The notes under the pieces were generated by a model that saw only the letters and a program-made list of their open reading frames with translations, ran no database searches and was not told the DNA's origin. Position numbers and translations under genes: made by a program. Positions 5,068-31,875 of a stretch of 32,000 nt of DNA are shown piece after piece (the stretch's first letter is position 1; each line of letters begins with the position of its first letter). Source of the stretch: Gemmata obscuriglobus (GTDB lineage Bacteria > Planctomycetota > Planctomycetia > Gemmatales > Gemmataceae); assembly GCF_008065095.1 (NCBI RefSeq), contig NZ_CP042911.1, positions 1,050,001 through 1,082,000 on the forward strand, given 5' to 3'.

Positions 5068-5234
5068 GACGGACTCCGGATGGAGAAAAGAAGCGGTGCT
5101 GATGATACCCGGCGTCCGTGCAACCGCCACGCGCCGTTTTCGGTTACGTTCTCGCGGGGCGCAACCGAACTTTTTTCCGCACGGTTGAACCGTATACTAC
5201 CTGTGCCGCTCTAACGAAGCGGGCACGGTAACTC

Positions 5235-5643: not shown

Positions 5644-5646
5644 CTC

Positions 5647-5680
5647 AAACGCCACTTGCGCACCCGCGCAAGTGGCGTTT
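5647..5680 (+). terminator. intrinsic terminator of ssrA
   Basis: Perfect 15-bp stem AAACGCCACTTGCGC / GCGCAAGTGGCGTTT with a 4-nt loop ACCC. Begins 4 nt after the tmRNA 3' end and is followed by TTTGTCATT. Confidence 0.65.
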
Positions 5681-5758
5681 GTCATTGGGTTCTCGCTGAT
5701 TCCGATTGTTCTGTACGTCACCCTTTTGCTCTGAACTGGTCTGAAGTCAGGCCGCTCT

Positions 5759-5965: not shown

Positions 5966-7930
5966 TTACGGGCACGGGTTGCAGGTCGGCACGCACACCG
6001 GGACGTACCGCTTTACGCAGGTGGTCACCGTGTACGGCTCCATCGAGCAGGTGGTGTGCGGGACCATCCGGCAGTGGGTTTCGGGCACCACCTTGCAGGT
6101 GGTCACCGGCACGCAGCGGACCCGCTCCTCGCACACGTAGTTCACGCGGCACTGGCGGACCACCTGCTGCTTCTCCTCGCACACCCAGCGGCAGGTGGTC
6201 ACGGGCACGTGCCGCACGCACACCTCCGGCACCTTCTCCACCACGCACCGCGTCTCGTACCGCACGTGGTCCTCCTTCACCAGCCGGCACGTGGTGTAGC
6301 ACACCTGCCGGGTGATCGTCTCGGGGACCATCGTGCACGTCCGCTTGGTCACATAGCGGACGTGCTCTTCCTTCTCCCAGCGGCACGTCTTGTACGGGAT
6401 CTGGCACGTCTTCACCTCCGGCACCGAGTAGCACCGGGTGCGGGTCACCATCTTCACGTGCTGCTCGGGCACCATCCGGCAGGTGGTGTACGGCTGGTAG
6501 CGCACGTGGTGCTCCGGAACGGTGTAGCACCGGTACCGGGTCTCGGTACGGCTGCACTGCTCGGGCACCATCCGGCAGGTGGTGTACGGGACGCGCTGGA
6601 CGTGGTGCTCGGGCACCTTGTAGCAGCGGGTCCGGGTCTCGTACCGCACGTGCTGCTCCTTCACCAGCCGGCAGACGGTGCGGCTGCACGCCTTCATCTC
6701 CGTCTGGGCCACCTTGCGGCACACCGGCACCTGCACGGTGGTGCAGACCGGCTTGCACACCGTCTTGCACTCCTTCACCACGCGGCACTCTTCCGTCGGC
6801 ACCCACACCTTCTTGCACACCGTCCGGCCGGGGCACTGCACGGTCTCGTGCGTCAGGCAGCCCGGGACGTACCGGCTGGTGCAGGTGCAGGGGTCGAACA
6901 CGCACGTGCCCGGGGAGCGCACCGCGCGGGTCACCACGGGGCCGGGCACGTACTCCGTCACCGTCTCGTAGTGGCCGCCGCACACCTTCTCGACGCGCTC
7001 GGTGACCACCGGCTCGGTCACGTAGCTGACCCGCTGCTGGGTGACGTAATCGACCTCGGTGCGGTAGGTGGTGACGGGCACGTAGTACGTCTGCGTCTCG
7101 TACTCGGGCCGCACCGTGCAGTACGGGATGGCGACCTGGTACTGCTGCGTTTCCGTTCGCCAGGTGGTGTACGGGATCTCGCGCACGTGCTGCTCGTACA
7201 CCGGCCGCATCACCGTGTACGGGATCTCCACCTGGTACGGCTCGCGGACCGCGCGGTAGGTGGTGTACGGGATCTCGCGCACGTGCTGCTCGTACACCGG
7301 CCGGTTCACCGTGTACGTGACGGGCTCCTGGTAGTGCTCCACCACCGGGCGGTTGACCACGTAGCTGTGCGTGCGGACGTGGTGCTCCACCACCGGCTTC
7401 ATCACGCAGTACGGGACCGCGACCTGGTACTCGTTGACGACCGGCTTCATCACCGTGTGCGACACGTCGCGGACGTGTTGCTCGTACACCGGCCGGGTGG
7501 TGCAGTACGGGATCGCCACCTGGAAGCTGCGCGTCACCGGCTTCAGCACCGTGTACTGCTGCTCTTGCAGGTGCGTCTCGTGGACCGGGCGGTTCACCGT
7601 GTACGTGCGGACGGTGTCGAAGTGCTCGACGACCGGGCGCTGCACCGTGTACTTCTCGGTGGTGTAGTTGGTCTCTTGAACGGTCTTGTACGTCGTGTAC
7701 TGCTCGGCCCGGTACTCGGTCTTGTAGACCGGGCGGTAGCACACCTGCTGGTGCTGCTCGACGACCGGCTGGTACTGAACGGTGCTGGTCACGACCGGGG
7801 CGGCGCACTGGTCCGGGGTGACGCAGCCGCGCGGGTACCGGCACACGCCGCAGTGGCCCGCGAGGGCGGGGTCCGCCAGCCCCGCCAGGCCGCCCAGCGC
7901 GAGCAGCCACAGCCCGAGTTGCTTCCTCAT
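5966..7930 (-). CDS. secreted cysteine-rich repeat protein with YTV-type repeats (Planctomycete-specific repeat family)
   Basis: ATG 7930 gives the signal peptide MRKQLGLWLLALGGLAGLADPALA. The N-terminal half is made of PV(V/Y)E(Q/H)HV...(Y)TV units (EKYTVQRPV, RTYTVNRPV, VTYTVNRPV, IPYTVMRPV). The C-terminal half is made of Cys-rich TCR(M/L)V(P/K)E.HVRY units. The two other long ORFs covering this span are shadows. Confidence 0.85.
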   Translation of the reverse strand: MRKQLGLWLLALGGLAGLADPALAGHCGVCRYPRGCVTPDQCAAPVVTSTVQYQPVVEQHQQVCYRPVYKTEYRAEQYTTYKTVQETNYTTEKYTVQRPVVEHFDTVRTYTVNRPVHETHLQEQQYTVLKPVTRSFQVAIPYCTTRPVYEQHVRDVSHTVMKPVVNEYQVAVPYCVMKPVVEHHVRTHSYVVNRPVVEHYQEPVTYTVNRPVYEQHVREIPYTTYRAVREPYQVEIPYTVMRPVYEQHVREIPYTTWRTETQQYQVAIPYCTVRPEYETQTYYVPVTTYRTEVDYVTQQRVSYVTEPVVTERVEKVCGGHYETVTEYVPGPVVTRAVRSPGTCVFDPCTCTSRYVPGCLTHETVQCPGRTVCKKVWVPTEECRVVKECKTVCKPVCTTVQVPVCRKVAQTEMKACSRTVCRLVKEQHVRYETRTRCYKVPEHHVQRVPYTTCRMVPEQCSRTETRYRCYTVPEHHVRYQPYTTCRMVPEQHVKMVTRTRCYSVPEVKTCQIPYKTCRWEKEEHVRYVTKRTCTMVPETITRQVCYTTCRLVKEDHVRYETRCVVEKVPEVCVRHVPVTTCRWVCEEKQQVVRQCRVNYVCEERVRCVPVTTCKVVPETHCRMVPHTTCSMEPYTVTTCVKRYVPVCVPTCNPCP

Positions 7931-8261
7931 GGTGATTCCTGCGTCCCGGTGCAAATCCGTGATGAACGGGGCGACGAGCCGGCCCGCTGATGAGAAATGT
8001 GCATGACGTTGCGGCGTCACAACAGGCGGCTTGTGCGGTTCGTGCGCAGGTCGGCGCGTCCGGTAACGGCGGAACCCGCCCAAAGGCGCCAACCGGACCA
8101 GCTCGCGCGCTCCGCACAAGCGGCACAATGCGACGAGTCGCGCTATCCCCACCAAATTCGGGGCGGGCGGGTGGCGCGCGGCTCGCGATTGCTCAACACA
8201 CGACCGGCGGGAGCCGACCGGCGCACTCGGGGCTTCCGCCCCTCATTCGCCCCGGAGTATC

Positions 8262-9125
8262 ATGAAGCCCATGAGCACCCCGACCGTTCTCGACCGCGAA
8301 GAGTACATCGAGCAGGCGTACCTGTTCCGCACCGTGCGCGAGCGGGTCGCCGACAACCAGCCGGCGCAGGAGGTGTTCCAGCGCGTCGCGGACGAACTGC
8401 TGTCCACCACCCGCCTCCCCTACGCCGTGCAGTTCGTGGCGTCGGAGCTGAAGCACACCGGCCTGTTGGCGAACGGGTTCGCCAAGCTCCCCCACTACTT
8501 CACCGCGTTCCAGGCGTTCGTCATTCAGCAGGCCGAGGACGAGAAGTCCCGGCTGCCGATGCCGACCGCCTTTCTGATCCTCGAGCGCGAGGCCGCCTAC
8601 CGGGCCAACCAGCCCACGCGGCCGGGGCTGTTCGTGTACCAGTTCGAGACGATCGCGCGCAACCGGCTCGGCTACATCGACGGCCTGGAGGCGATGGCCA
8701 GCGACCCGTTCTACGACGCCGACTGGCGGGGCTACTTCGACCAGTTGCGGCGCCTGGTGGGCGAGAAGGACTTCAGCGATCTGGTGTACACGCACTCCGA
8801 ACTGTTCGTGATCGAGGAGCGGCGCCGGAACCCGGCGTTCGAGCCGCGGCGGCCGGTCATTTTCGGCGAGAAGGAGGGGAAGATCGCGAAGGCGAGCCGC
8901 ACGCGCGACCCGCTGTACCTGTTCGCGGCGCTCCAGCGGCAGTTGGGCTACCCGGAGGTGCCCCGGTACCGCATCCGCGACGACGCGACCACGAAGATGG
9001 AGATCCTGCAAACGAAGCTGCGCGACCTGGAGATGCGGCTGAAGCTGGTGGAGGGCGAGTTGCGCGGGAGCGTCGACCTGAGCCAGTTCGGCAAGCCGGA
9101 CCTATTACGCGAGAAAGATGATTGA
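8262..9125 (+). CDS. conserved hypothetical protein (no recognisable domain)
   Basis: 287-aa ORF with non-repetitive, balanced composition. GGAG lies 4 nt upstream of ATG 8262. The antisense ORF 8193-9011 is Arg/Pro/Gly-rich shadow. Confidence 0.75.
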   Translation: MKPMSTPTVLDREEYIEQAYLFRTVRERVADNQPAQEVFQRVADELLSTTRLPYAVQFVASELKHTGLLANGFAKLPHYFTAFQAFVIQQAEDEKSRLPMPTAFLILEREAAYRANQPTRPGLFVYQFETIARNRLGYIDGLEAMASDPFYDADWRGYFDQLRRLVGEKDFSDLVYTHSELFVIEERRRNPAFEPRRPVIFGEKEGKIAKASRTRDPLYLFAALQRQLGYPEVPRYRIRDDATTKMEILQTKLRDLEMRLKLVEGELRGSVDLSQFGKPDLLREKDD

Positions 9126-9242
9126 TTCGACAAGCGATAGCTTCCGCCGCCCCTGCCCTGCCCTGCGCTCGTGCTCACCGGACGGGGGCAACCGCGCGTT
9201 CAGCTCTCGTTCACGGTGCAGGTCTTGGTGCCTGTCTTGGCT

Positions 9243-19619: not shown

Positions 19620-19733
19620 ATTCGGTCTCAATCGTTCGATACCGAACGCTCCAGCGGCACCAAACGCCCTTCGCAACACCGCTCGTGTGCTAAACATTGG
19701 GACGCGCGCCACGATAACTTGCGGAGCTTGCGA

Positions 19734-20444
19734 ATGCTTGCCGCCATCGACTGGAATCAGGTGCTGGCAAAGGCCGTGACCGGAGGGATCATCGGAGGGG
19801 TCGCCGGCGGCTGCGTCGGCCTCGTGTGGTACCTGGTGCCAAAATCGAATGAAAACAAGCAGGAAAGGGCCGGGGCGAATGGCCGCGCGCGGCCGCCCGC
19901 CAAAGCACTACCGCCCCTGGTCCTTTTCTTCTTCATCGCGGCGGTTACCTTCGTCCCCTTTGTCGTCGAGAAACGGTTTCTCAACGCCCTGCGGGTCCGC
20001 GTCTCGGGTGACGCGACGGCCCCCACCGTCACGATTTCTGATTACGGGCGGTATCGTGTCGCGGGTCCGGATCGCGCCACGCCGGGTGGCGCCGCCAACG
20101 CCGGTGAGCGCGAGTACGTGCTGTTGGAGCAGACCGATCAGGTTCCCTGCCGGGTCGGGGAAACCTGGGGCGTCCGGATTCGCGGTTCCGTTGCGCCCCA
20201 GGACGACCGGTCGCACCTCGTTCGGGAAGAGATCCACCATCCCCCCATCAAGCACCCCGACGGCTCGGTCCGAACAACCGACGCCCGCGAGTTCAGAACC
20301 CCGCCGGGGGCAGCTTTCGGCAGCACGAACTGCTGGCAATTTCTAAAAGGGCACGAGCACGAACTGGTCCCCGGCGACTGGACCTGGGTTGTGTTCGTCG
20401 ACGGTGTTGAAGTGGCACGCCGGACGTTCAGAGTTTGGAAATAG
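19734..20444 (+). CDS. membrane protein with C-terminal DUF3859-like domain
   Basis: Two N-terminal TM segments (VTGGIIGGVAGGCVGLVWYLV; LPPLVLFFFIAAVTFVPFVV). The C-terminal pattern ETWGVRIRG...IHHPPIKHPDG...HELVPGDWTWVVFVDGVEVARRTFRV resembles DUF3859. ATG 19734 is preferred over TTG 19719. Confidence 0.7.
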   Translation: MLAAIDWNQVLAKAVTGGIIGGVAGGCVGLVWYLVPKSNENKQERAGANGRARPPAKALPPLVLFFFIAAVTFVPFVVEKRFLNALRVRVSGDATAPTVTISDYGRYRVAGPDRATPGGAANAGEREYVLLEQTDQVPCRVGETWGVRIRGSVAPQDDRSHLVREEIHHPPIKHPDGSVRTTDAREFRTPPGAAFGSTNCWQFLKGHEHELVPGDWTWVVFVDGVEVARRTFRVWK

Positions 20445-20572
20445 CTTAAGGCTTCGAGTCGAAAGTCGTCCGGTCAGCAAGTCGTAACGTCACGAACTAT
20501 GATTATCACTGGATTTGTGACTGTACGACTTTCGACGGTCGGACTTTTGACCCGAAGTCCTTGACGTGGCAA

Positions 20573-20628
20573 GCGGACCGCCGTGGTTGCGCGGCTCGTT
20601 AAAGTGCCGCGCAACCACGGCGATCCGC
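20573..20628. repeat. strong stem-loop (23 bp, one mismatch)
   Basis: GCGGACCG-CCGTGGTTGCGCGGC, loop TCGTTAAAGT, GCCGCGCAACCACGG-CGATCCGC. The 15-bp core is perfect. Confidence 0.7.
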
Positions 20629-20633
20629 TCGGA

Positions 20634-20679
20634 CCCGGCAACCGGTTCAGGGGCGATTTCCTGAACCGGTCGTGCCGGG
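20634..20679. repeat. strong stem-loop (18 bp with a 2-nt bulge)
   Basis: CCCGGCA-ACCGGTTCAGG, loop GGCGATTT, CCTGAACCGGT-(CG)-TGCCGGG. Lies immediately 3' of the previous stem-loop. Confidence 0.7.
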
Positions 20680-21024
20680 CTCGATACTTGGTCCGCGCGC
20701 TGTTAAACTCGCGAACGCGACCCGGCGGGACACGGATAGCTTCAACTGCGATGCAACGTCGCGGGGTGGTTCTTGGTGCCGATCCGGAGCGTAGTGTCTC
20801 CCGACGCCAGCGTTTGGGGTTTCTGCGCTCGCCTGGAGGATGTCCACACGATGTACCTGGTCACGTGAAAGACCGGCGTGTACGGAAAGTGCCCGCCCGC
20901 CGGGTCGCATTTGTTCGCCTCAACGCTGCCGCTCACATCGCTCCAACCTCAGCCGGCCTTTCCCTCCGTTCCGTCCGGTGCTATCTCGCGGCTCGCATGG
21001 TCGCCTCGGGTCCGGAGGAAACGC

Positions 21025-21801
21025 ATGAAGGCCGGTTTTGCGGCGCTCGCCGTCCTGTTGACCCTCAGCTCCGTTGTTCCCGCCCAGCCGGCGCGGGCGA
21101 ACGATCCCAAGCTCGATGCCCACCTCGAGGCGTGGGAAAAGAAGATGGCCGGCGTCGTGAACCTGCGGTCCGATGTCACGCTCACGCGCACCGATTCCGT
21201 GCTCAAACGCGCCACGACCTTCAAGGGGGCGGCCCTGTGCATGAAGCCGACCTTCGCGCGCGTGCGGCTGGAGAACGCGGCCGACCAAACGAAGCGGGAT
21301 TACGAGGCGTGGATCTGCAACGGGAAGGCGGTGTACGTGTACAACGGGCTCGCGAAAACGGTCACCGAGTTCGAGCTGCCCAAGTCGGGGCGCGGGGCCG
21401 ACAACCTGCTGCTCGACTTCCTCGCCGGTATGAAAGCCAAGGACGTGAAGGAGCGGTTCAAGGTCGCCCTGTCTGCCACGGACGAGCACTACGTCTACCT
21501 GGCCATCGAGCCGGTGCTCGGTACCGACCAGCGCGAGTTCAAGCACATCCTGCTCGCCCTTTACGGCCCGGGTCCGAAAACCGCCGCCGTCTCGTACCTG
21601 CCGGCCGAGATCCGCATCCTCAAGCCGAACGACGATCTGGAGTCGTGGAAGTTCTCGGGCCTGAAGGTGGACGTGCCGAACGTGGACGCCAAGCTCTTTC
21701 AGTACGAGGAAATCAAGGGCTGGGCGCGCCTCAGGCCGCCCCCGCAGCCGATCGCCGGCGGCCCCACGCCGGGCGCCCCGGTGCGGCCAAATAAGCCTTG
21801 A
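21025..21801 (+). CDS. LolA-like outer-membrane lipoprotein carrier family protein (secreted)
   Basis: GGAGGA lies 5 nt upstream of ATG 21025. Signal peptide MKAGFAALAVLLTLSSVVPAQPARA. LolA-like pattern FKGAALCMKPTFARVRL...WICNGKAVYVYNGLAKTVTEFEL...DFLAGM...ERFKV. Pro-rich C-terminal tail. Confidence 0.7.
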   Translation: MKAGFAALAVLLTLSSVVPAQPARANDPKLDAHLEAWEKKMAGVVNLRSDVTLTRTDSVLKRATTFKGAALCMKPTFARVRLENAADQTKRDYEAWICNGKAVYVYNGLAKTVTEFELPKSGRGADNLLLDFLAGMKAKDVKERFKVALSATDEHYVYLAIEPVLGTDQREFKHILLALYGPGPKTAAVSYLPAEIRILKPNDDLESWKFSGLKVDVPNVDAKLFQYEEIKGWARLRPPPQPIAGGPTPGAPVRPNKP

Positions 21802-21875
21802 GAAACGATGGCGGAACGGCGGTCCGGTCGCGGCTTCGTTGCTGCCCACGCGGACCCCGCGTTTACGAAAACAGA

Positions 21876-22000
21876 TTTTGACAGGATCGACAGGATGAAC
21901 AGGATCAAGACCGATTGATTTTTAATCCTGTTTATCCTGTCGATCCTGTCAGAATATCCTGCTTTTGACGGGATCGATTGAATTCAGACCGATCGATTTG
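21876..22000. repeat. ATCCTGT-type octamer repeats forming a 27-bp-arm hairpin, plus a partial direct duplication
   Basis: TGACAGGATCGACAGGATGAACAGGAT (21879-21905) pairs with ATCCTGTTTATCCTGTCGATCCTGTCA (21925-21951) with one mismatch. TTTTGACAGGATCGA (21876) is repeated as TTTTGACGGGATCGA (21964). GACCGATTGATTT (21910) is repeated as GACCGATCGATTT (21987). Confidence 0.6.
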
Positions 22001-22029
22001 AAATCCAGTCTTTTCAAGTTGTTGGTTGT

Positions 22030-22105
22030 GCGCCACCCGCCTGCTGCGCAGGCGGTTCGACAAGCCACGTTACACCGGCCTGCTGACGCAGGCCGGTGTA
22101 ACGTG
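22030..22105. repeat. REP-like hairpin pair; the first unit is a copy of the inner arm of the 18646-18793 palindrome
   Basis: GCGCCACCCGCCTGCTGCGCAGGCGGTTCGAC (22030-22061) closely matches the reverse complement of 18727-18759. It is followed by a perfect 18-bp stem CACGTTACACCGGCCTGC / GCAGGCCGGTGTAACGTG (22066-22105) with loop TGAC. Confidence 0.7.
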
Positions 22106-22226
22106 TTCTGGTTCTGTGAGCGATCTCATCTCGGCTGCCGCTAACTTGAAATTAATGAAATCGGAATCGACCCAGGCACCGGACCGCGAATACACTTCGC
22201 TGCCCGAGCCGATTTAAGGAGCGACC

Positions 22227-22304
22227 ATGATCGCATTTGTACTCTGGATCGCGATGGGTGGCGGGCGCAGGCTCAGTCGCGTCCAGTGTGGCGGGATTTG
22301 TTAG
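22227..22304 (+). CDS. candidate small ORF (25 aa, hydrophobic N-terminus, CGGIC C-terminus)
   Basis: Textbook SD AAGGAG (22216-22221) lies 5 nt upstream of the ATG. Peptide MIAFVLWIAMGGGRRLSRVQCGGIC, stop TAG 22302-22304. Too short to evaluate statistically and not in the supplied ORF track. Confidence 0.25.
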   Translation: MIAFVLWIAMGGGRRLSRVQCGGIC

Positions 22305-22620
22305 GGCGTGTGGACAGTCAATTCGGGCAATCGACGTAAGTCCTGAATTTGCAAGGACCAGTGACTGGAGAGCTGAAAGCCCGCCAATCGTCACAACCAC
22401 TAGGGCAATAGCGACTTACGCCATGACTGTCCACACGGCCTAGTTTTTTAGCGAGATTTCCAACCATTTCCGGCCAGTTCGGAGATAGTCCTGAGGCGTG
22501 CAGGTAGGGCAAAGTCGCGTTCCCCGCACGTCGGAGAGCGCGAGCTACGAAGCTTGGCGCGATCGCTACCGCGTTCGTAAAATCGTTTCCACTGGCCATA
22601 CCGACCACGTGGAGGCTGTC

Positions 22621-22995
22621 ATGTCCAAGCCCGTCGTTTACATCGCCTCGCCCTACACCAAGGGCGATGTGGCGATGAACACGCACTTCCAGTGCAAAAC
22701 CTTCGACACGCTGCTCACCGACGGCAAGGTCTGGCCGATCGCCCCGCTCTGGTCGCACTTCCAGCACACCGTTTTTCCACGCCCCTACGCTGACTGGATC
22801 GCTTACGATCAGGCCCTCCTACCGCTTTACGATGCCTGCCTCCGGCTCACCGCGCACTTGCCGCAGGTCGGGTACACGCAGACAGAATCGTCTGGGGCTG
22901 ACGGAGAAGTCGAGACCTTCAAGCGTCTCGGCAAGCCCGTGTTTTACAGCGTCGAGGAACTTTACCGGTGGGTTGACTCGCGAAACGCGGGCTGA
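22621..22995 (+). CDS. DUF1937/DUF4406-type nucleoside 2-deoxyribosyltransferase-like protein
   Basis: GGAGG lies 6 nt upstream of ATG 22621. MSKPVVYIASPYTKGD (N-terminal strand plus SPY motif). Internal (P)LWSHF. C-terminal ESSGADGEVETFKRLGKPVF fits the S-x-G-x3-E-x3-A/F-x3-G-x-PV pattern of this clan, recalled from memory. Confidence 0.7.
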   Translation: MSKPVVYIASPYTKGDVAMNTHFQCKTFDTLLTDGKVWPIAPLWSHFQHTVFPRPYADWIAYDQALLPLYDACLRLTAHLPQVGYTQTESSGADGEVETFKRLGKPVFYSVEELYRWVDSRNAG

Positions 22996-23039
22996 ACCCG
23001 CGCCAGGCCATCCCTCCACCCCCGCCGAGGCTGATTGCG

Positions 23040-23756
23040 ATGCCGCCCACCCCGCCGAAGGACATCGAGAAATCGATCGACAGCCTCCAACGAATTCACG
23101 CGCTGGTGTCGGCGCTGGCATTGGGTGAAGCGGTCCGGCGACTGGTGCTCAACCCTGGGGCTGCGGATGCCGCCTTCAACACCGAGGCGCTTCCCCAGTT
23201 CCTTGCACTCGTTTGCACGATCGTGCCATTCTACCACGGCATGCACCGGCACCTCGAAGATACTTATCTGTTCGCAACCGACGCGCGTCATCCGAAAGGC
23301 GTGCTCCTGATCGACTTCGTGGTTTTCTTGGCTGAGGCGTCAACCTTCTTCGCGCTGGCGGCCCTGTTCAAGTCGCCGAACTTCTTCTGGCTGCTCGCCG
23401 GGCTTCTCACCTTCGATGCGCTGTGGGGCGGGGTAACGGCACTCATCAACCCGGCAACGAAATTCCGGTGGTGCCTGCTAAACTTCGGTGCAGCAGTGGC
23501 CATGTTCGTGGTGCTCTCGCTCAACGTCTTCCGGCCTGGAATGGACGTGTGGTTGCTGACTCTCGTTGCGGGGGTGCGCACGATCCTCGATTACTCGACA
23601 CACTGGCGGTTTTACTTCCCGTTCGGGGATGAGCAGCCGCCGAGCGCCCAAACGGTCGGCGAAGAAAACAAAGCGGCCGTTGGCCCCACGGCGAACGGCC
23701 GCAACCACAAGCCTGAAGAGTCGCCGACCACGTCAAGCGAGACCCAACGGGTGTAA
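23040..23756 (+). CDS. multi-pass membrane protein, unknown function (5-6 predicted TM helices, disordered C-terminal tail)
   Basis: Hydrophobic segments LPQFLALVCTIVPFY, VLLIDFVVFLAEASTFFALAALF, FFWLLAGLLTFDALWGGVTAL, WCLLNFGAAVAMFVVLSL, VWLLTLVAGVRTIL. Starts 44 nt after the upstream gene and ends 2 nt before the next start. Confidence 0.75.
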   Translation: MPPTPPKDIEKSIDSLQRIHALVSALALGEAVRRLVLNPGAADAAFNTEALPQFLALVCTIVPFYHGMHRHLEDTYLFATDARHPKGVLLIDFVVFLAEASTFFALAALFKSPNFFWLLAGLLTFDALWGGVTALINPATKFRWCLLNFGAAVAMFVVLSLNVFRPGMDVWLLTLVAGVRTILDYSTHWRFYFPFGDEQPPSAQTVGEENKAAVGPTANGRNHKPEESPTTSSETQRV

Positions 23757-23758
23757 CT

Positions 23759-26700
23759 GTGCGAGCCGAAATCCGCGATCTTGAGCTGGCATTTAAGAGC
23801 AACGGACAGGAGTTCGAAGCCTTCGTACACGATTTGATTCGTGCCGTTGGAGCGGCCTGCGGGATTGCAGCGCACCAGATTAATTACGATCGCCGCAGCA
23901 ACGTGGCAGACGGTGGGAGAGACATCATCGTTCGTGTCGGGGGCCAGGGTAGCAGTTACGGCTTTATTCCAGATCGGCCGTCGCACTGGTCGGTCAAGGC
24001 TGGGGAGGAGGGGATTAAACCCAGCCAGTTGAAAAAGGAGATTCTCAAGCAGGAAAAAGAAGACCATCCAAAGGTGAGGGATGCGCTACTGGCGGGTGAA
24101 ACGTATGTTTGGTGTGCGGTTTACCCCGCGACCGTGGATCAGCGAGACAAGATGTGGGAGGCGGCGAAGGAAGTCGCCGAGGAGTTGAAATTCCCAGCCG
24201 ATCTCATTGAATTCCGCTGGCAAGACGCACTCAGGACGGTGCTAAATGGATACCCGAACGTTATCCCCCAGCACCTGCCGAACGTGGACAATCGATGGGC
24301 AGGTGTTCGCCTACTCAGTGAATGGCGACGGGAACCATATCTCAACACTCCCTGGAGCGATTTTGGCTCTCGGGCCGCCCTTGTCACGCGAATAGCGAGC
24401 CATCTGCGAGGCAACGGGGCTCCTAACCTGCTTCACATCGCCGGCCTATCTGGCATCGGTAAGAGTCGCGCCGTCCTTGAGGCGTGCCAAAGCGATGTCG
24501 AGCTGCAAGGCGTTTTTTATCTTCAGCGATATCAAGACTTAACACAGAGGATCGAGCGATCGCTACAGGGGGCGAACAGGGTCTACGTCGTTATCGACGA
24601 GACACCGCTGCACGTCGTTGAGTCCCTCATCTCTCAGTTCTCCGAATGCGTCGATCAGGTCCGCATTGTCACGATCGGGCCGGCGAGTCGACAACGGGTC
24701 ATATCCAGCAGAGAGATAGTCGTCGTTCCTGAGCCGCAGACAGAAGAAGAGGTGCTCGCCGTTATCCAGGCCCCCGGCAACGGGCTGTCGGAGACCGTGT
24801 TGCGAAGCATCGCCTCCCTCTGCGCGCATGATTTGCGGCTCGCGCTCATGCTTGTTCGGGCGAGCCTGCAAAATCTAGCGCTGCAAACCGTTCCGATCGT
24901 TGACTTCGATGGGGTGTGGACTCGCCTGATGAGTCTGTACCCAAACGAGATACCCGATGTCGCCGCGTATCGGCGGAACTACCAATCGCTCGCAGTTGCC
25001 ATTGATGTAGGTGTCGAAGGCGAGTTTCGGGAAGAGTTACGGGCGCTGGCCCGCTACTTCGGGTGCCAAGAAAGTGACCTGCTCGTCTGCTCCAATGTCT
25101 CCGTTAGTTGCGGCCTCGGGCTACGCGCCGGAAGATTTTTTGAAACCACGCCGCACGCGCTTGCGATTGACGCATTCCGCTCGCTCTTCCGTAACCACCT
25201 ACGCGATCGTCTTTCCGAGTTCCTGGCAGTATTGCCAGCCAGGCTTCAGATGAAATTTCTGGAGCGGTGCCAGGAATGCCCTGACGGTTTGCGTGAGGAG
25301 GTGGCTGCCCGTGTGGGCGGCGTCTTTCTTGGGTGGCTCAGCCACTCCAACGTGAGCATCCTGACTGGCCGTGAAGCCTCGCGCATCTTCCAGGCGTGGG
25401 CTGAGTTCGATCCGGTTCGGGGGCTCGACTGGCTCCGCCACGCAATTGAGATTGCCTCGCCCGAACAACTCGTCGCATTGGACGGCGAGCCGGACGGGTC
25501 AGGAGGCTGGCGGGGGCGACGCCAACTCGTTTGGCTGTGCCAGAATCTGGCCTGTTTTCGGGAGAATTTCTCGGCCTGTGAAGCCGTGCTCTTCCGCTTG
25601 GCCCAGCACGAGAACGAGGACATCGGCAACAACAGCACGGAAGTGTGGCAGTCGCTTTTTGGGATAGTGCTGTCCCACACAGAGCTGCCATTTCAAGATC
25701 GCTTCCCGCTCCTCTTAAGACGTCTGCGAGAGGCGAGCCCGGAGACCGTCAGGTTGCCATTGCGCGCTGCCTTCCGGTGCTTGGTGTCCGAAGTGATCGG
25801 GATGGCCGTTCCGCCCCGCGTGGTCGGCGGGAGGATTGTCCCCGAACAATGGCGCCCATCGACCAACGGAGAATGGAGAAGCTTGCGTCGGAGTGCTGGC
25901 GAACAGGTGATCGAGGCTATCGGTCAGCTTGCCACCACACAAAGAGGGGTCGCCCTCAACGAATTGACGGGGCAAATCAGATCTTTCCGTGATCTCTGGT
26001 TGATGGAACAACTCCGAGGGGTCTTCCGTGATGATTGGCTCACGCCAGACATCCGGCTATCTCTCGTCCTGGAACTCCAGCGCGGCATCGATACCTATCG
26101 CCGCGCCGAGCAAGAGGAAGGACAGCCAACTCACCCTCAAGTTCTCGCCCAAGAAGCGTGGCTGGCGGCACTGTCGCCGAAGGATTTGGCGACGCGGGTT
26201 CAGGACTCGACAGCTCGTGCCCAGCACGAACTCTGGGATGGGGATAACCCGGATTCGTTCTACGCCGGCATGGCGGAGGAGCTGATTGTTTCGCCCGACA
26301 CGTTCCGCGGCCTCGCGCAGTGGTTCGACTCCCCACGAGCGAGTGCGGTGGAATACCTCGGATTTAGTGTCGGAAGGCGCGACCAGCGAGGCAACCTCGC
26401 GGACATCATCACTGACTGGCTGCGGGCAGACCAGTGCCGTAAGGTTGCAGTCACCTACCTAAATGGCATCGCGGCAGCAGAGGCCAAGTTGCCTGATCGA
26501 TGGGCCGATGTACTCGACGCAGTGGAGGGGGCACAGCCCGAGCTGACGATCATTGCCACGCTTACGGCGGATGTCAGCGCGAAGGGCTATGAGCGTGTGA
26601 TGCGCGCGATAGGCAAAATGGCCCCACCAGCCGCGCGGTTGTTGCGTGGGTTTGCTTACGATCGCTGGTCATATGTTCTATCCGATGAACAGCAAAAAGT

Positions 26701-27487
26701 CATTCTCTGGAGACTAGTCGAAATGTCGGACGGTGGAGCCGCCCCTCTCGTCGGCATGGATCTGATTCACCGCTGGTGCCACATTGCGAAGAAGCCCCTC
26801 GACGCCCAGCTTGTGCCCGCAGCCTTTGAGTTGGCGGCCAAGGCACCCCAGTACCCTAAGGATCAGACCGGATACAACTGGCGTGAGACCCTCCGCTTAC
26901 TGCATAGGCACGATCCGGTGCGAGTGGCTGAGATCGCCCTGGACGTGATGACCTCGCCGGAAAGTCACCCGTGGAGATTCGGCGACGAGAACGTCTCACT
27001 CCTTGCCGAATGCGCCGCCATTGCCCCTGACCAGATCATGGAAACGGTCGGGCGGTATATTCTGAACCGCCAGCGACGGACCATCTTCGCCGTTTCGGTC
27101 TATCACGGCCTGTTCGAGGCCATTGGAGTGGATGCCGTCCGGCGTTGGGTGGACAATCATGGTCGGGAGAACCTGCGCTGGATTGCGAGGCATTTCAACT
27201 CGCCGGGCCGAAATGCACGCGGAGAGACGATCCTCCCTCCGCTAACCGAATGGCTGTTCACCGAACGCGAGGACGACCAAGAAGCGTTCGAGTGGTTTCT
27301 GATGGGTAGGCGAAGTGGTGCGCGGATGTGGTCGGGAAATCAGTCCGCTGCAAAGCAGGCGGAAATGCAGCCTTATCTTCATCACCATCTGCGCCGCGTC
27401 AGAGAATGGGCTCAAGACGAAATCAGGTTCTTCGTTAACGAAGACGCGCGGTTCCGGGAATTCGAAGACGAGTCTGAGCGGCTTTGA
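23759..27487 (+). CDS. 1242-aa protein: Mrr/PD-(D/E)xK-like nuclease N-domain + P-loop (STAND/AAA-type) NTPase + ~870-aa helical C-terminal region (Avs/NLR-like architecture)
   Basis: GTG 23759 starts 2 nt after the upstream stop. N-terminus: FEAFVHDLIRAV...NVADGGRDIIV (D51 at 23909-23911)...HWSVKAG (K80 at 23996-23998). Walker A GLSGIGKS (24443-24466). Walker B RVYVVIDE (24578-24601), then VRIVTIGP and VVVPEPQTEEEVLAVI. The remainder is Leu/Trp/Arg/Glu-rich and helix-like. Single uninterrupted ORF with no competing frame. Confidence 0.85.
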   Translation: MRAEIRDLELAFKSNGQEFEAFVHDLIRAVGAACGIAAHQINYDRRSNVADGGRDIIVRVGGQGSSYGFIPDRPSHWSVKAGEEGIKPSQLKKEILKQEKEDHPKVRDALLAGETYVWCAVYPATVDQRDKMWEAAKEVAEELKFPADLIEFRWQDALRTVLNGYPNVIPQHLPNVDNRWAGVRLLSEWRREPYLNTPWSDFGSRAALVTRIASHLRGNGAPNLLHIAGLSGIGKSRAVLEACQSDVELQGVFYLQRYQDLTQRIERSLQGANRVYVVIDETPLHVVESLISQFSECVDQVRIVTIGPASRQRVISSREIVVVPEPQTEEEVLAVIQAPGNGLSETVLRSIASLCAHDLRLALMLVRASLQNLALQTVPIVDFDGVWTRLMSLYPNEIPDVAAYRRNYQSLAVAIDVGVEGEFREELRALARYFGCQESDLLVCSNVSVSCGLGLRAGRFFETTPHALAIDAFRSLFRNHLRDRLSEFLAVLPARLQMKFLERCQECPDGLREEVAARVGGVFLGWLSHSNVSILTGREASRIFQAWAEFDPVRGLDWLRHAIEIASPEQLVALDGEPDGSGGWRGRRQLVWLCQNLACFRENFSACEAVLFRLAQHENEDIGNNSTEVWQSLFGIVLSHTELPFQDRFPLLLRRLREASPETVRLPLRAAFRCLVSEVIGMAVPPRVVGGRIVPEQWRPSTNGEWRSLRRSAGEQVIEAIGQLATTQRGVALNELTGQIRSFRDLWLMEQLRGVFRDDWLTPDIRLSLVLELQRGIDTYRRAEQEEGQPTHPQVLAQEAWLAALSPKDLATRVQDSTARAQHELWDGDNPDSFYAGMAEELIVSPDTFRGLAQWFDSPRASAVEYLGFSVGRRDQRGNLADIITDWLRADQCRKVAVTYLNGIAAAEAKLPDRWADVLDAVEGAQPELTIIATLTADVSAKGYERVMRAIGKMAPPAARLLRGFAYDRWSYVLSDEQQKVILWRLVEMSDGGAAPLVGMDLIHRWCHIAKKPLDAQLVPAAFELAAKAPQYPKDQTGYNWRETLRLLHRHDPVRVAEIALDVMTSPESHPWRFGDENVSLLAECAAIAPDQIMETVGRYILNRQRRTIFAVSVYHGLFEAIGVDAVRRWVDNHGRENLRWIARHFNSPGRNARGETILPPLTEWLFTEREDDQEAFEWFLMGRRSGARMWSGNQSAAKQAEMQPYLHHHLRRVREWAQDEIRFFVNEDARFREFEDESERL

Positions 27488-28188
27488 GCACCCACGAAGA
27501 TGCTGCGGCGGCAAGCCGTCACGTCCCCGCCCGACAGAACGCGATTTTCGATCAACAACAGGTGCAGTGGGGTGGTGCGACACACACCCGTGTACCACCG
27601 GCCTCACCGAGGCCGGCTACAGAATACGGAGCGGATACCGAACGATCGGATTCGGTATGGGTCCGCTGTCATCTGCCGGGTGTGCTCCGGGCGCTGTTTC
27701 GGGTGTTGGGGCTCGCCGAATGGCGTGCCAACCGGCGGACCGGCCGGCCGCGGTCCCGGAAAATCGGAACGGGGCGCCGACTGGACATTCGCTGGCGGTT
27801 GATGGGTCAAGAACTACCCGTTCGCTGGCTCGCTGCTACCCGCGAATCACACGATCGGACCTGGCGTGAGAGGTTCAGAGGCGCTCCCGGTCGGTACCGA
27901 TGGCGTTCGGGTGATAGGTCGTAATGCCTTGTAGTAATGTCGCTTGTGGCGAATTGCTTCCGTCGATTGGTTCGCTTGGCTGGGGAGGAAACGGTGCCAA
28001 TGGCTGCGCGAGTTGTGGGTTGCGGCGTGGGGAAAACTTCTGGAAGCGATTTGAGGGGGATTAGGGTGGGGAAATGCCCGATGTGCCGACCGGACGGTCG
28101 GCGGCGGCGGTGCGGTGGCGGTTGCGTTTCCTGTGCCGTTCGCGGTTCTTAAAATGACGACAGACGCCGTCGGAAAGGCCGCAACTGC

Positions 28189-28992
28189 ATGACTACCCCA
28201 CTGCGCGTCGGCGCGGTCAACTACCTGAACACCAAGCCCCTGATCGAGCGGCTCACCGACTTCGCGCCCAACATCGACCTCACGCTCGACCTCCCCAGCC
28301 GGCTCGCCGACCGGCTCGCGGCCGGGGAACTGGACGTCGGACTCATTCCGGTGGTCGAGTTCTTCCGCGGCGGCAACTACAGCTTCGTCCCCAACGTCGC
28401 GATCGGCTCGCGCGGTCCGGTGCTGAGCGTCACGCTGTTCAGTAAGGTGCCGTGGGAGCAGATCCGCTCCGTGTCGCTGGACGAGGGGTCGCGGACAAGC
28501 GCCGCGCTCACGCGGATCATACTCCAGAAGCGGTACGGGGTGCGGCCGACCTTCGAGCAACTGCCGATCGATGCTGGTGCCGACGACCTTGCCACCGACG
28601 CCGTGCTGCTGATCGGCGACCGGGCGATGCGGGCGTGCCTGCCGGGCTACCGGTTCGCCTACGACCTCGGCGAGGAGTGGACCGCGTGGACCGGCCTGCC
28701 GATGGTGTTCGCGGTGTGGGCCGTCCGCGGCGGGGTGGAACTGGGCGCGGCCGAGACCGCGTTCCACCGGGCGAAGGAGTACGGGCTGGCGAACGCCGGG
28801 CTGATCGCCCAGCGCGAGGCGCCGGCGCTGGACCTCGACCCGGGGTACTGCCGCCGGTACATGACGAACATCATCCGCTACGACCTCGGCCCGACCGAAC
28901 TCGCGGGCCTGCGGAAGTACCGGGAACTGGCCGAAGAACTGGGACTGGTGGCGCCCGCCCCGCGCCACCCGCACGCCGGGAGAGCGCAGTGA
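28189..28992 (+). CDS. mqnA: chorismate dehydratase MqnA (futalosine pathway of menaquinone biosynthesis)
   Basis: LRVGAVNYLNTKPLIERL, ELDVGLIPVVEF and SLDEGSRTSAALTRIIL are characteristic MqnA (periplasmic-binding-protein-like fold) blocks. The stop overlaps the next start (GTGA). Confidence 0.85.
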   Translation: MTTPLRVGAVNYLNTKPLIERLTDFAPNIDLTLDLPSRLADRLAAGELDVGLIPVVEFFRGGNYSFVPNVAIGSRGPVLSVTLFSKVPWEQIRSVSLDEGSRTSAALTRIILQKRYGVRPTFEQLPIDAGADDLATDAVLLIGDRAMRACLPGYRFAYDLGEEWTAWTGLPMVFAVWAVRGGVELGAAETAFHRAKEYGLANAGLIAQREAPALDLDPGYCRRYMTNIIRYDLGPTELAGLRKYRELAEELGLVAPAPRHPHAGRAQ

Positions 28993-30110
28993 GCACCATC
29001 GACACCATTCTCGCGAAGGCCGCGGACGGCGTTCGGATCACCCCCGACGAGTGCCTGGAACTGTTCGCGTGCCGCGACCTGCACAAGCTCGGGCGCGCCG
29101 CGCACGCGGTGACGATGCGGCTGCACCCCGAGCCGTACCGCACCTACAACATCGACCGGAACATCAACTACACCAACGTGTGCGCCGCGGTGTGCGACTT
29201 CTGCGCGTTCTACCGCAAGTCGGCCGACGCCGACGCCTACGTCCTGTCGCGCGAGGAGCTGTACAAGAAGATCGAGGAGACGATCGCGCTCGGCGGCGAT
29301 CAGGTGCTCATGCAGGGCGGGATGCACCCGTCGCTGAAGCTCGAGTGGTACGAGGAGCTGCTCCGGGACCTGCGGGCGCGGTTCCCGGGCGTGAACCTGC
29401 ACGCGTTCAGCCCGCCCGAGATCTGGCACTTCAGCAAGCTGAACAAGCTGCCGCTCGAAACGGTGCTCCGGCGCCTCAAGGACGCCGGGCTGGGCTCGCT
29501 CCCCGGCGGCGGCGGCGAGATCCTGGTGGACCGCGTGCGGAAGGAGCTGACGAAGGGGAAGGCGCTCACGAACGAGTGGCTGGAGGTGTGCCGGGTGTGG
29601 CACAAGCTCGGCGGGATCGGGAGCTGCACCATGATGTTCGGCCACATCGAGACCGACGCCGAGCGCGTGGAGCACCTCACCCGCCTGCGCGACCTTCAGG
29701 ACGAGACGGGCGGGTTCAGCGCGTTCATCTGCTGGACCATGCAGCCGGGCCACAAGATGGCCGATTACCCCGAGCGGGGGGCGTTCGAGTACCTGCGCAC
29801 GCAGGCGATCGCGCGGCTGTTCCTGGACAACATCAAGAACATCCAGTCCTCGTGGGTGACGCAGGGCGGGAAGATCGGCCAGGTCGCGCTGTTCTTCGGG
29901 GCCAACGACATGGGGTCGCTGATGATCGAGGAGAACGTGGTCGCGTCCGCCGGGACCGTCCACTACCTCACGCTGGAGGAGATCAAGCGCAGCATCCGCG
30001 AGGCCGGGTGGGAGCCGCGGCAGCGGAACGTGTTCTACCAGCTCATTGACGAGAAGCCGGCGGCGCCGCGCCCCGTGGCTCGTGAGCTGGCGCTGCCGGT
30101 GCTGAACTGA
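28989..30110 (+). CDS. radical SAM menaquinone-biosynthesis enzyme of the MqnC/MqnE family (cyclic dehypoxanthinyl futalosine synthase or aminofutalosine synthase)
   Basis: GTG 28989 overlaps the mqnA stop. Radical SAM cluster motif NVCAAVCDFCAFY (Cx3Cx2C), GGDQVLMQGG, SLPGGGGEI, FGANDMGS. I cannot separate MqnC from MqnE by eye. The ORF extension back to 28452 overlaps mqnA and is rejected. Confidence 0.85.
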   Translation: MSTIDTILAKAADGVRITPDECLELFACRDLHKLGRAAHAVTMRLHPEPYRTYNIDRNINYTNVCAAVCDFCAFYRKSADADAYVLSREELYKKIEETIALGGDQVLMQGGMHPSLKLEWYEELLRDLRARFPGVNLHAFSPPEIWHFSKLNKLPLETVLRRLKDAGLGSLPGGGGEILVDRVRKELTKGKALTNEWLEVCRVWHKLGGIGSCTMMFGHIETDAERVEHLTRLRDLQDETGGFSAFICWTMQPGHKMADYPERGAFEYLRTQAIARLFLDNIKNIQSSWVTQGGKIGQVALFFGANDMGSLMIEENVVASAGTVHYLTLEEIKRSIREAGWEPRQRNVFYQLIDEKPAAPRPVARELALPVLN

Positions 30111-30221
30111 CGGGAGCGCGGCCGCCGGGCGGAACCGGACACATTCCCGTTTCCGATCCCGCTCGCGCTCGGCACAATGAACCCGAGCCCGTTTACCACC
30201 CGTTGTGCCACCGAGACGTGA

Positions 30222-30989
30222 ATGTCCGACGAATTCACCATGCGCCTGCGGCTCCAGACCGTGGCCGCGTACCGCGACCTGCGCCGGGGCGTGCAGCGGA
30301 GCGGGCGCGAGAACGTCGTGTTCGCGGTCATCATGTTCGGCATCGCGTACTTCTACCACTCGGCGGGCGTGCCCCTGCTGGTGATCGCGCTGTACTGCCT
30401 GCTGGCCGCCGGGGAGGTGCTGGTCGGGCTGTTCAAGTGGCTGTTCCCGTCGGCCGAGGGCGTCCTGCTCGACGGGCTCGTGCTGCTGAGCTTCGCCGGC
30501 TGGAACCTGGGCTGGCAGGGGCTCGGGGTGGCCGCGGGCGGGCGGCCGCCCAACGTGTTCGTCGTGCTGCTGGGCCTGTACATGCTGAGCGGGGCGGTCA
30601 GCCGGTTCCGGAGCTACGCGCACCTGCGGCGCCTGTTCGCCGAGCGCCCGGCGCCCGAGCACCTCGCGTGGTTCGACGAGCTGGTGGTGGACATCCTGAC
30701 CGCCGACCCGCACACCGATCGGCTCGCGCTGGACCTGCCGACCTCGCCGCACTGGCGGGCGAAGCTGATCGGCGGCACCGCGTTCTTCGTCGCGGGCAGC
30801 GGGGGGCAGGTGTGGATCGCGGGGGCGGACGACTTCAGCCTGAGGCGCGAGAAGGAGGGCCGCGGCGACGGCCGCCGCAAGGCCCTGCTCCGCATCTACG
30901 GCGAGGCGTACCCCGAGTTCGACCTCGACGACGCGAGCTGGGCCAACTACGCGAACTGGATGGCCGAGCAGACCGACTCACGCCCGTAG
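30222..30989 (+). CDS. hypothetical membrane protein (four hydrophobic segments plus soluble C-terminal domain)
   Basis: [67 protein letters not shown]. The C-terminal ~120 aa are polar. No recognisable family. Confidence 0.65.
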
Positions 30990-31134
30990 CCGGGGTGAGG
31001 AGGCCGGAGCAAACGCCGGGTGCGGGACGCGCACGTGTGTCGTCGTTCCGGCCTCGCGTTTTTTGACACGGGCGTTTCACGCTTCTTTACTCATTCCGCA
31101 CTCTCAACATTTCCCTCCTGCCCTCCGGACGCGC

Positions 31135-31863
31135 ATGATCGAAGTACGCGATCTGTCGAAGTGGTTCACCGGCCCCGGGGGGCTGCGCGTCACCGCCGTG
31201 GACGCCTTGCGGTTCACCGTCCGCCCCGGCGAGGTGTTCGGCCTGCTGGGGCCGAACGGGGCCGGCAAAACGACCACCCTGCGCATGCTCTGCACGGTGC
31301 TCACGCCCACCGACGGGACCGCGACCGTCGCGGGGTACGATGTCGTCCGGGAGCCCGGCGCGGTGCGCCGCCACGTCGGGTTCCTTTCGGCGAACACCGG
31401 CGTTTATGACCGGATGACCGCGTGGGAACTGGTCGAGTACTACGGCCGGCTGCACCAGGTCCCGCCGGACGAACTGCGTCCGCGCATGGAGGAGCTGTTC
31501 GACACGCTCCAGATGAAGGCGTTCCGGGACGTGCGCGGCGGGAAGCTCAGCACGGGGATGAAGCAGAAGCTCTCGATCGCCCGGGCGATGGTGAACGACC
31601 CGCCCGTGCTGATCTTCGACGAGCCCACCGCCGGCCTTGACGTGCTGGTGCAGCGGGCCGTGCTGAACAACATCAAGGCGCTGCGCGACCGGGGCAAGAC
31701 GATCATCTTCTCCACGCACATCATGCGCGAGGTGGAGCGGCTGTGCGACCGGGTCGCGGTGATGTCGAAGGGGAAGCTGGTGGCGTGCGGGACGCTCGAC
31801 GAGCTGCGCGAGATGTACAAACAGGACGACCTGGAGGAGCTGTTCTTCGAGCTGGTGCGCTGA
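31135..31863 (+). CDS. ABC transporter ATP-binding protein (ABC-2/NatA-like exporter type)
   Basis: Walker [10 protein letters not shown], signature [12 protein letters not shown], Walker [14 protein letters not shown]-loop STHIM. ATG 31135 (MIEVRDLSK) is the conserved start position for this family. Confidence 0.9.
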
Positions 31864-31875
31864 CAGCCATGCCCG

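Follow-up and report, generated by a model that had tools for sequence, protein, structure and literature searches.

Do the three closely packed genes of one Gemmata obscuriglobus locus form a single antiviral system, or are they separate units that have come to lie side by side? The locus lies within a 32,000-nucleotide stretch of contig NZ_CP042911.1 (positions 1,050,001 to 1,082,000 of the forward strand; hereafter the window, to which all positions refer unless another locus is named) and consists of g1 (22621-22995, 124 aa; GobsT_09000, WP_010039322), g2 (23040-23756, 238 aa; GobsT_09010) and g3 (23759-27487, 1242 aa; GobsT_09020), all on the plus strand. A preliminary description, made from the DNA letters, had proposed a three-gene defence cassette composed of a nucleoside deoxyribosyltransferase (NDT)-like protein, a multi-pass membrane protein and a giant nuclease-STAND NTPase. 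Our analysis led to a different reading, which we consider likely as a whole: the locus represents a small, horizontally acquired and variable defence islet of G. obscuriglobus, in which an Avs8-like g3 and an independent g1-g2 unit, evolutionarily separate, happen to abut and are probably co-transcribed.

The physical layout in the preliminary description was recovered in full, including three same-strand open reading frames (ORFs), gaps of 44 nt between g1 and g2 and 2 nt between g2 and g3 (junction TAA-CT-GTG), a lower-GC segment (0.57-0.62 over 21.5-28 kb versus 0.64-0.76 in the rest of the window), and the g3 motifs FEAFV, ADGGRDIIV, WSVKAG, GLSGIGKS and VYVVIDE. All three genes are publicly annotated as 'hypothetical'. 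Since homologues were found for each (52 for g3, 22 for g2 and more than 980 for g1), they are real genes rather than chance ORFs. The ATG start of g1 at 22621 was backed by homologue alignments and by the public annotation WP_010039322 (124 aa), rather than the start further back at 22498 given by a mechanical ORF list, and the GTG start of g3 was backed by the family consensus MRxxxxDLxxxF.

To judge whether the three genes belong together, the neighbourhoods of their relatives were compared. Seven g3 loci (L001-L007), whose g3 homologues were 31-80% identical, were searched over ±8 kb by gene calls and tblastn, and none of the seven carried a g1 or g2 relative; even homologues with 80% and 75% identity stood without g1 or g2 nearby. 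Conversely, a g3 relative was found in none of 84 g1 loci (three from genomes, 80 from metagenomes and locus L008, the genome loci having been located by exact peptide patterns), nor in any of 69 viral g1 loci (IMG/VR contigs L097-L165). Co-occurrence of the trio in other genomes, which the preliminary description had put forward as a check on its cassette, was thus never seen in anything sampled. At the DNA level, similarity to L004, which carries an 81.5%-identical g3 homologue, spanned exactly 23756-27488, and similarity to the g1-g2 loci spanned 22620-23633, ending in the variable tail of g2. The DNA homology of each module breaks at the g2/g3 junction.

A single three-component system, in which the STAND protein g3 would sense infection and g1 and g2 would serve as co-effectors or as an anchor, has to be weighed against these results. 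The common strand, the 44- and 2-nt gaps and the lack of any predicted terminator between the genes fit co-transcription and speak for such a system, as does the presence of all three genes in one species-specific insertion, although a shared variable spot is silent on whether g1, g2 and g3 arrived together. Co-transcription in G. obscuriglobus is plausible, because a promoter-like site lies at 22554-22583 on the plus strand, 38 nt 5' of the g1 start (9/12 positions in a consensus scan), and no terminator is predicted between the genes; this site is weak, such sites being no more frequent in the region than the shuffled expectation. Co-transcription is, however, no evidence for joint function. 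Also weighing against two independent units, g1-g2 adjoins a nuclease or nuclease-like gene in three planctomycete loci (an Mrr_cat gene in L008, g3 in the present window and, by eye only, a gene in L010), and this adjacency could reflect a functional link instead of island clustering. Given the signs of co-transcription, functional cross-talk between g1-g2 and g3 in this one genome is possible, and the pair may be co-expressed with, or modulate, the Avs8-like g3. In L010, the planctomycete gene just 5' of g1-g2 (6327-6932) appeared GIY-YIG/T5orf172-like by eye (...YKIGRS...EWFEL...), without profile confirmation. On the other side stand the empty counts at g3, g1 and viral g1 loci, the solitary g3 homologues of 80% and 75% identity, the breakpoints exactly at the g2/g3 junction, and a GC content at third codon positions (GC3) that differs between the modules (0.77 for g1, 0.77 for g2 and 0.67 for g3; 0.87-0.99 for flanking host genes). 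Moreover, the Avs proteins characterised so far work without such partners (10.64898/2026.01.04.697583). We therefore regard one three-component system as quite improbable and retain the reading of two abutting units, which are considered in turn below.

The first unit, g3, could be assigned to a known defence family. Two papers rename PD-lambda-4 as Avs8 and describe Avs8A as an Mrr nuclease joined to a P-loop STAND NTPase that is triggered by the HK97-fold major capsid protein of phages; in its original definition the system comprised two genes in one operon, the second being Avs8B (10.1101/2025.07.02.662641; 10.64898/2026.01.04.697583). A search of g3 against the PADLOC models gave one match, PD-Lambda-4_A (E 1.2e-5), in which g3 residues 575-675 were aligned with model positions 581-682 of 1283; the matched positions are collinear, and the two proteins are similar in length. 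Of the model searches proposed in the preliminary description, the PADLOC search thus gave a match for g3, whereas g1 and g2 had no PADLOC v2 match at E<=1. Relatives of g3 were collected with a profile of its first 1000 residues, searched against 1.84 billion representative proteins, and as a result 2953 were found, 690 of them at E<=1e-30. Among the 150 relatives listed, most full-length ones measured ~1220-1300 aa and matched nearly the whole 1000-residue profile. The PD-Lambda-4_A profile matched 35/35 aligned g3 relatives (best 5e-21), the bridging-clade protein P0262 matched it over model positions 4-1171 of 1283 (E 2.7e-35), and an hhalign comparison joined the g3 clade to the bridging clade over 1219 columns (probability 100%, E 2e-166). 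From these three results, and judged by profile homology, g3 is a remote, full-length, collinear member of the Avs8/PD-lambda-4A family. The preliminary description had seen in g3 the order effector, NTPase, sensor that marks antiviral STAND (Avs) proteins, and this layout is supported; its remark that no described system could be named no longer applies to g3.

The domain organization of g3 was in keeping with this membership, as examined across 40 relatives that were 21-37% identical to g3. The N-terminal domain (23759-24298, plus strand, aa 1-180) contains E20, D51-G-G-x-D55 and S78-x-K80, among which D51, G53 and D55 were invariant and K80, together with W77, nearly so. The family consensus DGGVD...WQYKA corresponds to the Mrr-type D...D...QxK pattern, g3 itself having S in place of Q. 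We assign this domain as a putative Mrr-type PD-(D/E)xK nuclease on three grounds: its motifs are conserved, Avs8A has been described as having an Mrr nuclease, and sister clades swap the domain. In two sister-clade proteins, P0225 and P0243, the alignment with g3 begins only near residue 185, and their N-termini are LmuA/Cap4-like in place of Mrr-like (PADLOC LmuA, E 5e-38 and 2e-31), an exchange that corresponds to the effector swapping typical of Avs proteins. It is followed by a P-loop STAND/AAA+-type NTPase (24356-24958, plus strand, ~aa 200-400) with Walker A at G229-S236 (24443-24466), Walker B at D280-E281 (24596-24601) and a sensor-like R302; G232, G234, K235, D280 and R302 were invariant, and G229 and E281 nearly so. 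Pfam AAA_16 fell below threshold in g3 itself and matched 19/35 and 24/40 family members, with nSTAND_NTPase5, NB-ARC and HEAT in a few. The remaining ~840 aa (24959-27484, plus strand), a presumed helical sensor, were homologous end to end across the family, with W1217 invariant and weak HEAT, alpha-Rep and TPR-like matches. In profile searches of the family against the PDB, the NTPase matched replication factor C subunits and, more weakly, Apaf-1, whereas the C-terminus matched designed alpha-repeat proteins.

Several observations weigh against this assignment, or against too close an equation of g3 with Avs8A. The match of g3 itself covers only ~100 residues of the PD-Lambda-4_A model (E 1.2e-5), and the bridging clade reaches only 119 bits against that model. 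Because the clades bridging to the E. coli protein are only 21-25% identical to g3, a different trigger is possible for this remote branch of the family. For the nuclease, Pfam Mrr_cat matched 0 of ~75 family members (35 scanned, then 40). An hhalign comparison of the N-terminal profile with EcoKMrr placed the FE..V, DGGxD and [Q/S]xK blocks collinearly at a probability of 3%, which is not significant, and comparisons with the Mrr_cat protein of L008 by hhalign and hmmsearch likewise aligned the right motifs without statistical support. Furthermore, Avs8 is defined as an A+B operon, and a B-like gene was not found at the ORFs tested here: the PADLOC model PD-Lambda-4_B (Avs8B) matched neither g1 nor g2, nor one ORF 3' of g3, nor the 3' ORFs at L005 and L007. 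As the called neighbours of g3 homologues also vary from locus to locus, this branch looks like a solo gene. No PADLOC Avs1-5 model matched g3, and NCBIfam returned nothing for g1, g2 or g3.

The absence of a curated Pfam or NCBIfam family at threshold, together with the existence of large STAND regulators in bacteria, would also allow g3 to be an NTPase with a housekeeping or regulatory task, such as a STAND protein of signal transduction, and to have no antiviral function. We hold this to be highly improbable: g3 shares homology with a protein whose defence role has been validated by experiment, its nuclease-type motifs are conserved, an LmuA-like domain takes the place of the N-terminus in relatives, the gene is missing from the 95%-identical region of a sister genome, and its homologues occupy variable, island-like contexts. 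The neighbours of these homologues included a WYL regulator, a DISARM-like helicase-MZB-PLD trio, HicB, Uma2, transposases and an Imm33-like gene. In L002, a regulator with helix-turn-helix and WYL domains (7048-7947) lies 53 nt 5' of the Novipirellula rosea g3 homologue, an arrangement common for regulated defence genes. In L007, three same-strand genes (1-5752), encoding a 1040-aa protein, an MZB/DUF1998 protein and a phospholipase D (PLD) nuclease, lie directly 5' of the g3 homologue P0004 and look like a DISARM-like core.

By analogy with characterised Avs proteins, g3 would then act as a solo Avs8/PD-lambda-4A-like antiviral STAND protein. Its ~840-aa C-terminal helical domain would bind a conserved phage protein, for which the Avs8 precedent is the HK97-fold major capsid protein. 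Binding would free the P-loop NTPase (K235, D280/E281) from autoinhibition, the protein would oligomerise in an NTP-dependent manner, and the Mrr-type PD-(D/E)xK domain (D51, D55, K80) would cut DNA, so that infection would be aborted.

The second unit is formed by g1 and g2, a conserved pair that the preliminary description had overlooked. The AlphaFold2 model of g1 (mean predicted local distance difference test, pLDDT, 89) was compared with the PDB by Foldseek, and the top 18 matches were all nucleoside 2'-deoxyribosyltransferases, followed at rank 19 by DNPH1. The best match was 7o62_A (probability 1.0, template modelling (TM) score 0.65), and the matches overall had probabilities of ~1.0 and TM scores of 0.5-0.67. 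A match to PHROG 355, 'nucleoside 2-deoxyribosyltransferase' (E 3.8e-7), pointed in the same direction. The earlier label 'DUF1937/DUF4406-type NDT-like' thus held for the fold and failed for the named families: Pfam gave neither DUF4406 nor DUF1937 at E<=1 and only DUF7768 below its cut-off (E 7.6e-4, 20.2 bits versus 26), while the UniRef label reads 'DUF4406 domain-containing'. Across 34 sequences, Y12, D63, D71, G92 and E96 were invariant, and Y12, D63/D71 and E96 (in SSGADGE) are candidate catalytic residues, equated with those of NDT enzymes from motif position. From the predicted structure, g1 is a probable N-glycosidase or transglycosylase. In two further loci, the g1 domain forms the N-terminal part of a 446-aa ORF (L063 5980-7320 and L064 223-1563), where it may be fused to a C-terminal region of ~320 aa.

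The distribution of g1 is wide, with 68-80% identity across records from Planctomycetota, Armatimonadota, Thiotrichaceae, Kangiellaceae and Saccharimonadales. No match was found in PLSDB plasmids, and isolate phages gave one weak match. The 69 viral relatives were 36-66% identical, and none of them was accompanied by either of the two membrane partner families described below. In the metagenomic loci L071 and L076, the gene next to the g1 relative has a P-loop N-terminus that appeared deoxynucleoside monophosphate (dNMP)-kinase-like by eye. Taken together, these observations hint that phages use a form of the enzyme in nucleotide metabolism. Since the viral relatives lack a membrane partner, such a phage enzyme may have been the source of the g1-g2 pair, or may be related to it.

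That g2 encodes a multi-pass membrane protein, as the preliminary description had stated, was borne out by its AlphaFold2 model (pLDDT 79), which shows six long helices, the C-terminal tail (aa 199-238) being disordered and variable. The polar residues R70, D92, N148, R180 and D184 are invariant. No match to g2 was obtained in Pfam, NCBIfam, PADLOC or PHROGs, and a Foldseek search of the model against the PDB and the viral BFVD gave no convincing relative; the sole fold hint was the bacterial TMEM175 channel 5vre_A (E 0.13, probability 0.92, TM score 0.39-0.46).

The association of g1 with membrane proteins was quantified by local hidden Markov model analysis of the 84 g1 loci. A g2-family gene adjoins g1 in 44 of them (32 downstream, 11 upstream and one on the opposite strand), and a second membrane family does so in 17 others. 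With 11 contigs too short to judge and 12 loci without a partner, a membrane partner stands next to g1 in 61 of the 73 informative loci, in both gene orders. Proteins of the second family measure ~231-257 aa with 5-7 transmembrane segments by a crude hydropathy count and are encoded directly 3' of g1 relatives (for example L040 6388-7083, L045 521-1231, L055 6388-7086, L069 6388-7083 and L082 5566-6339). No homology between the two membrane families was detected by hhalign, and a Pfam scan of 22 members of both gave noise only. By eye, the first helix of the second family (LhltFVemlFaLaigqiAi) resembles the TMEM175 signature. Genomes of Planctomycetota, Armatimonadota and Thiotrichaceae all contain the g1-g2 pair, which by its sequence conservation and recurrence is a genuine cross-phylum pair. 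In L016 (3-2413), a 375-aa ORF, transposase-associated-like by eye, lies between the g1 and g2 homologues, which suggests that this pair was split by an insertion.

The pair was usually found within or next to restriction-type systems, and its context is one of defence genes. Directly 5' of g1-g2, 18 loci have a type III Mod gene, at measured distances of -3 to +12 nt. A type III Res gene stands beyond it in seven loci, all those with contigs long enough, and 11 loci have a UvrD/GajB-like helicase gene (~700 aa) on the 3' side. Together they form a recurrent Res-Mod-g1-g2-helicase cassette of genes that overlap or lie a few nt apart, found in Armatimonadota, Thiotrichaceae and many metagenome contigs (L011 1426-10107, L012 1142-14007, L026, L033 123-9163, L054, L065, L073 and L089). 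Other neighbours of the pair included PD-Lambda-5_A with a D12 methyltransferase, a TIR protein, an Mrr_cat protein, and a trypsin-like protease with an HNH protein. In L012 and L026, extra genes precede the helicase, among them PD-Lambda-5_A with a D12 methyltransferase and, by eye, a Fic/DOC-like ORF. In L009 (6983-9833), a g2 homologue (71% identity) occurs without g1, followed 3' by a TIR-domain protein (PADLOC PDC-S66/ThsB-like), with a phage integrase nearby. The 332-aa gene 5' of this g2 homologue gave a weak Q_salvage match in Pfam, an assignment that a PDB sequence search did not confirm. Literature searches on the pair (DUF7768; DUF4406/DUF1937 with defence; NDT with defence island or restriction-modification) returned nothing relevant.

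What the pair does can be proposed at a confidence that is low and much below that for g3. In our reading, g1 and g2 would be a nucleotide-cleaving or -converting enzyme and its membrane partner, that is, a nucleotide N-glycosidase with a membrane protein, working either as a defence module in their own right or in an accessory role to restriction. The more specific form of this proposal, that the pair is an undescribed, widely transferred defence module or restriction accessory combining an NDT-fold N-glycosidase with a channel-like protein and present in at least Planctomycetota, Armatimonadota and Gammaproteobacteria, is tentative, and we give it somewhat less than an even chance. Its conservation speaks against it, 70-80% identity across phyla being unusual for a defence gene.

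The main rival for the role of g1-g2 is a salvage or transport function, whereby the pair would be a transporter and an N-glycosidase for nucleoside or nucleobase salvage or detoxification, a hitch-hiker on mobile DNA, with g3 as the only defence gene. The same cross-phylum identity points to a substrate that is a universal small molecule. Relatives of the NDT and DNPH1 types work in metabolism, viral contigs commonly carry g1 relatives on their own, and the two metagenome loci with a dNMP-kinase-like ORF (by eye) agree with such a role. The invariant polar residues of g2 lie within helices, as in transporters and channels, and the g2 homologue of L009 comes after the gene with the weak Q_salvage match, a label that is itself unconfirmed. 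What lowers the probability of salvage is the setting: many loci have the pair tightly enclosed by a type III Mod gene and a UvrD-like helicase gene, with gaps of -3 to +37 nt, it adjoins PD-Lambda-5, TIR, Mrr and Avs8-like genes, and it lies here in a variable islet. We consider salvage a doubtful explanation, though one to be taken seriously.

Less probable still is that g1-g2 is specifically an accessory of restriction-type nucleases that g3 has co-opted, for example one that destroys or exchanges the modified (deoxy)nucleotides of restriction-evading phages. The recurrence of Res-Mod-g1-g2-helicase cassettes with overlapping or nearly overlapping genes fits this idea, as does the position of the pair beside Mrr_cat in L008, possibly beside a GIY-YIG-like gene in L010 (by eye only), and beside the Mrr-STAND gene here. 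DNPH1-type enzymes hydrolyse modified dNMPs, which also counts for it, the likeness of g1 to them being a fold match only. Yet the idea gives the membrane partner no role, 17 loci pair g1 with the different membrane family and show no recurrent restriction-modification neighbours, and the proposal is purely inferential; we regard it as unlikely. The broader proposal of a defence or restriction-accessory pair is kept as the tentative preference.

The variable position that the preliminary description had raised as a possibility was evident from a sister species. The orthologous region of Gemmata algarum (L166) aligned by blastn at 95% identity over 19626-21941 and 27654-31864, and the segment between them, 21942-27653, is species-specific for G. 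obscuriglobus, 332 nt standing in its place at the syntenic G. algarum site. This 5.7-kb segment consists of ~680 nt of non-coding sequence, g1, g2, g3 and a 166-nt tail. Its left breakpoint falls inside a palindromic element (21875-21955) with 34-nt arms, each carrying three GACAGGAT-type 9-mers; four pattern matches were found versus none expected, and related copies occur at the same G. algarum site (L166 ~9080-9230). The element of GACAGGAT repeats could mark a hotspot of recombination, as a repetitive extragenic palindrome (REP)- or miniature inverted-repeat transposable element (MITE)-like element or as an array bound by protein. A search for mobile-element signatures at the segment boundaries found no tRNA, integrase or flanking direct repeats. 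Within the non-coding stretch 5' of g1, a perfect hairpin of 18 bp with a T-rich tract behind it (22066-22105) is terminator-like, yet no convincing ORF ends just before it.

The genes flanking the segment are ordinary planctomycete genes. On the 5' side lie two DUF1501 genes, rhodanese-domain genes, a pyridine nucleotide-disulphide oxidoreductase gene with a rhodanese domain and a DUF3859 gene, and on the 3' side MqnA, a radical-SAM MqnC/E-type gene and an ABC ATPase gene. An exact look-up of the MqnA of the window returned only the same strain, bearing the same trio. The sole Rfam match in the window was a transfer-messenger RNA (tmRNA; 5235-5646; ARAGORN; RF00023, 131.7 bits) with the tag peptide AEPQYSLAA, which is not the integration site of the islet because it lies 16 kb upstream.

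These results allow GobsT_09020, a 'hypothetical protein' of a model planctomycete, to be assigned to the Avs8/PD-lambda-4 family. They also indicate that this family is very large (2953 representative clusters), with solo and nuclease-swapped forms far outside Enterobacteria, and the diverged sensors of the g3 family should be useful for studying the evolution of capsid recognition. The g1-g2 pair is the more useful lead, being compact, unusually conserved and moving between phyla, absent from PADLOC (2023), and including in g2 a protein without a Pfam family. Should it prove to act in immunity, the known defence strategies would be extended by the combination of a nucleotide glycosidase with a membrane protein. 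The pair might also account for an accessory role within a widespread restriction cassette.

Among known systems, the NDT and DNPH1 enzymes resemble g1 in predicted fold and in the N-terminal Tyr, the conserved Asp residues and the Glu of G-x-x-x-E; they differ in that identity is only 12-16%, and g1 is shorter (124 aa) and encoded beside a membrane protein. The NDT-like N-glycosidase of Retron-Eco1 (Ec86) is an anti-phage effector that hydrolyses NAD(P)+ (PMC12673091; PMC7736814). It belongs to the NDT superfamily, whose fold g1 shares; in contrast, no reverse transcriptase or multicopy single-stranded DNA (msDNA) gene lies beside g1, there is no PADLOC retron match, and the partner of g1 is a membrane protein. 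Type II Thoeris, Pycsar and transmembrane-effector CBASS are alike in layout only, a small nucleotide-acting enzyme standing beside a multi-pass membrane protein in defence islands; they have no sequence or profile similarity to g1 or g2, and g1 is without a sensor domain and far more conserved than such enzymes. For g2, the TMEM175/DUF1211 potassium channels share the six-helix bundle and provide the best, though weak, Foldseek match (5vre_A); they are set apart by the poor statistics of that match (E 0.13, TM score 0.39-0.46), by the absence of a Pfam match and by the lack of a visible RxxxFSD motif in g2.

For g3, Avs1-4 (AVAST) and STAND proteins with Mrr or Cap4 effectors share the effector-NTPase-sensor logic, the single-gene format and effector swapping (LmuA/Cap4-like in sister clades of g3), whereas the PADLOC Avs1-5 models leave g3 unmatched and the sensor region is unrelated in sequence. 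From Avs8A of E. coli, g3 differs in matching only ~100 residues of the E. coli-derived profile, in being linked to it through clades ~21-25% identical to g3, in its S-x-K nuclease motif versus the Q-x-K of the family, in having no Avs8B-like partner detected, and in its planctomycete host. The resemblance to Avs8A nonetheless extends along the whole protein, which in both cases measures ~1240-1280 aa, is joined by profile homology and is collinear from the nuclease motifs through the P-loop STAND NTPase to the long helical C-terminus.

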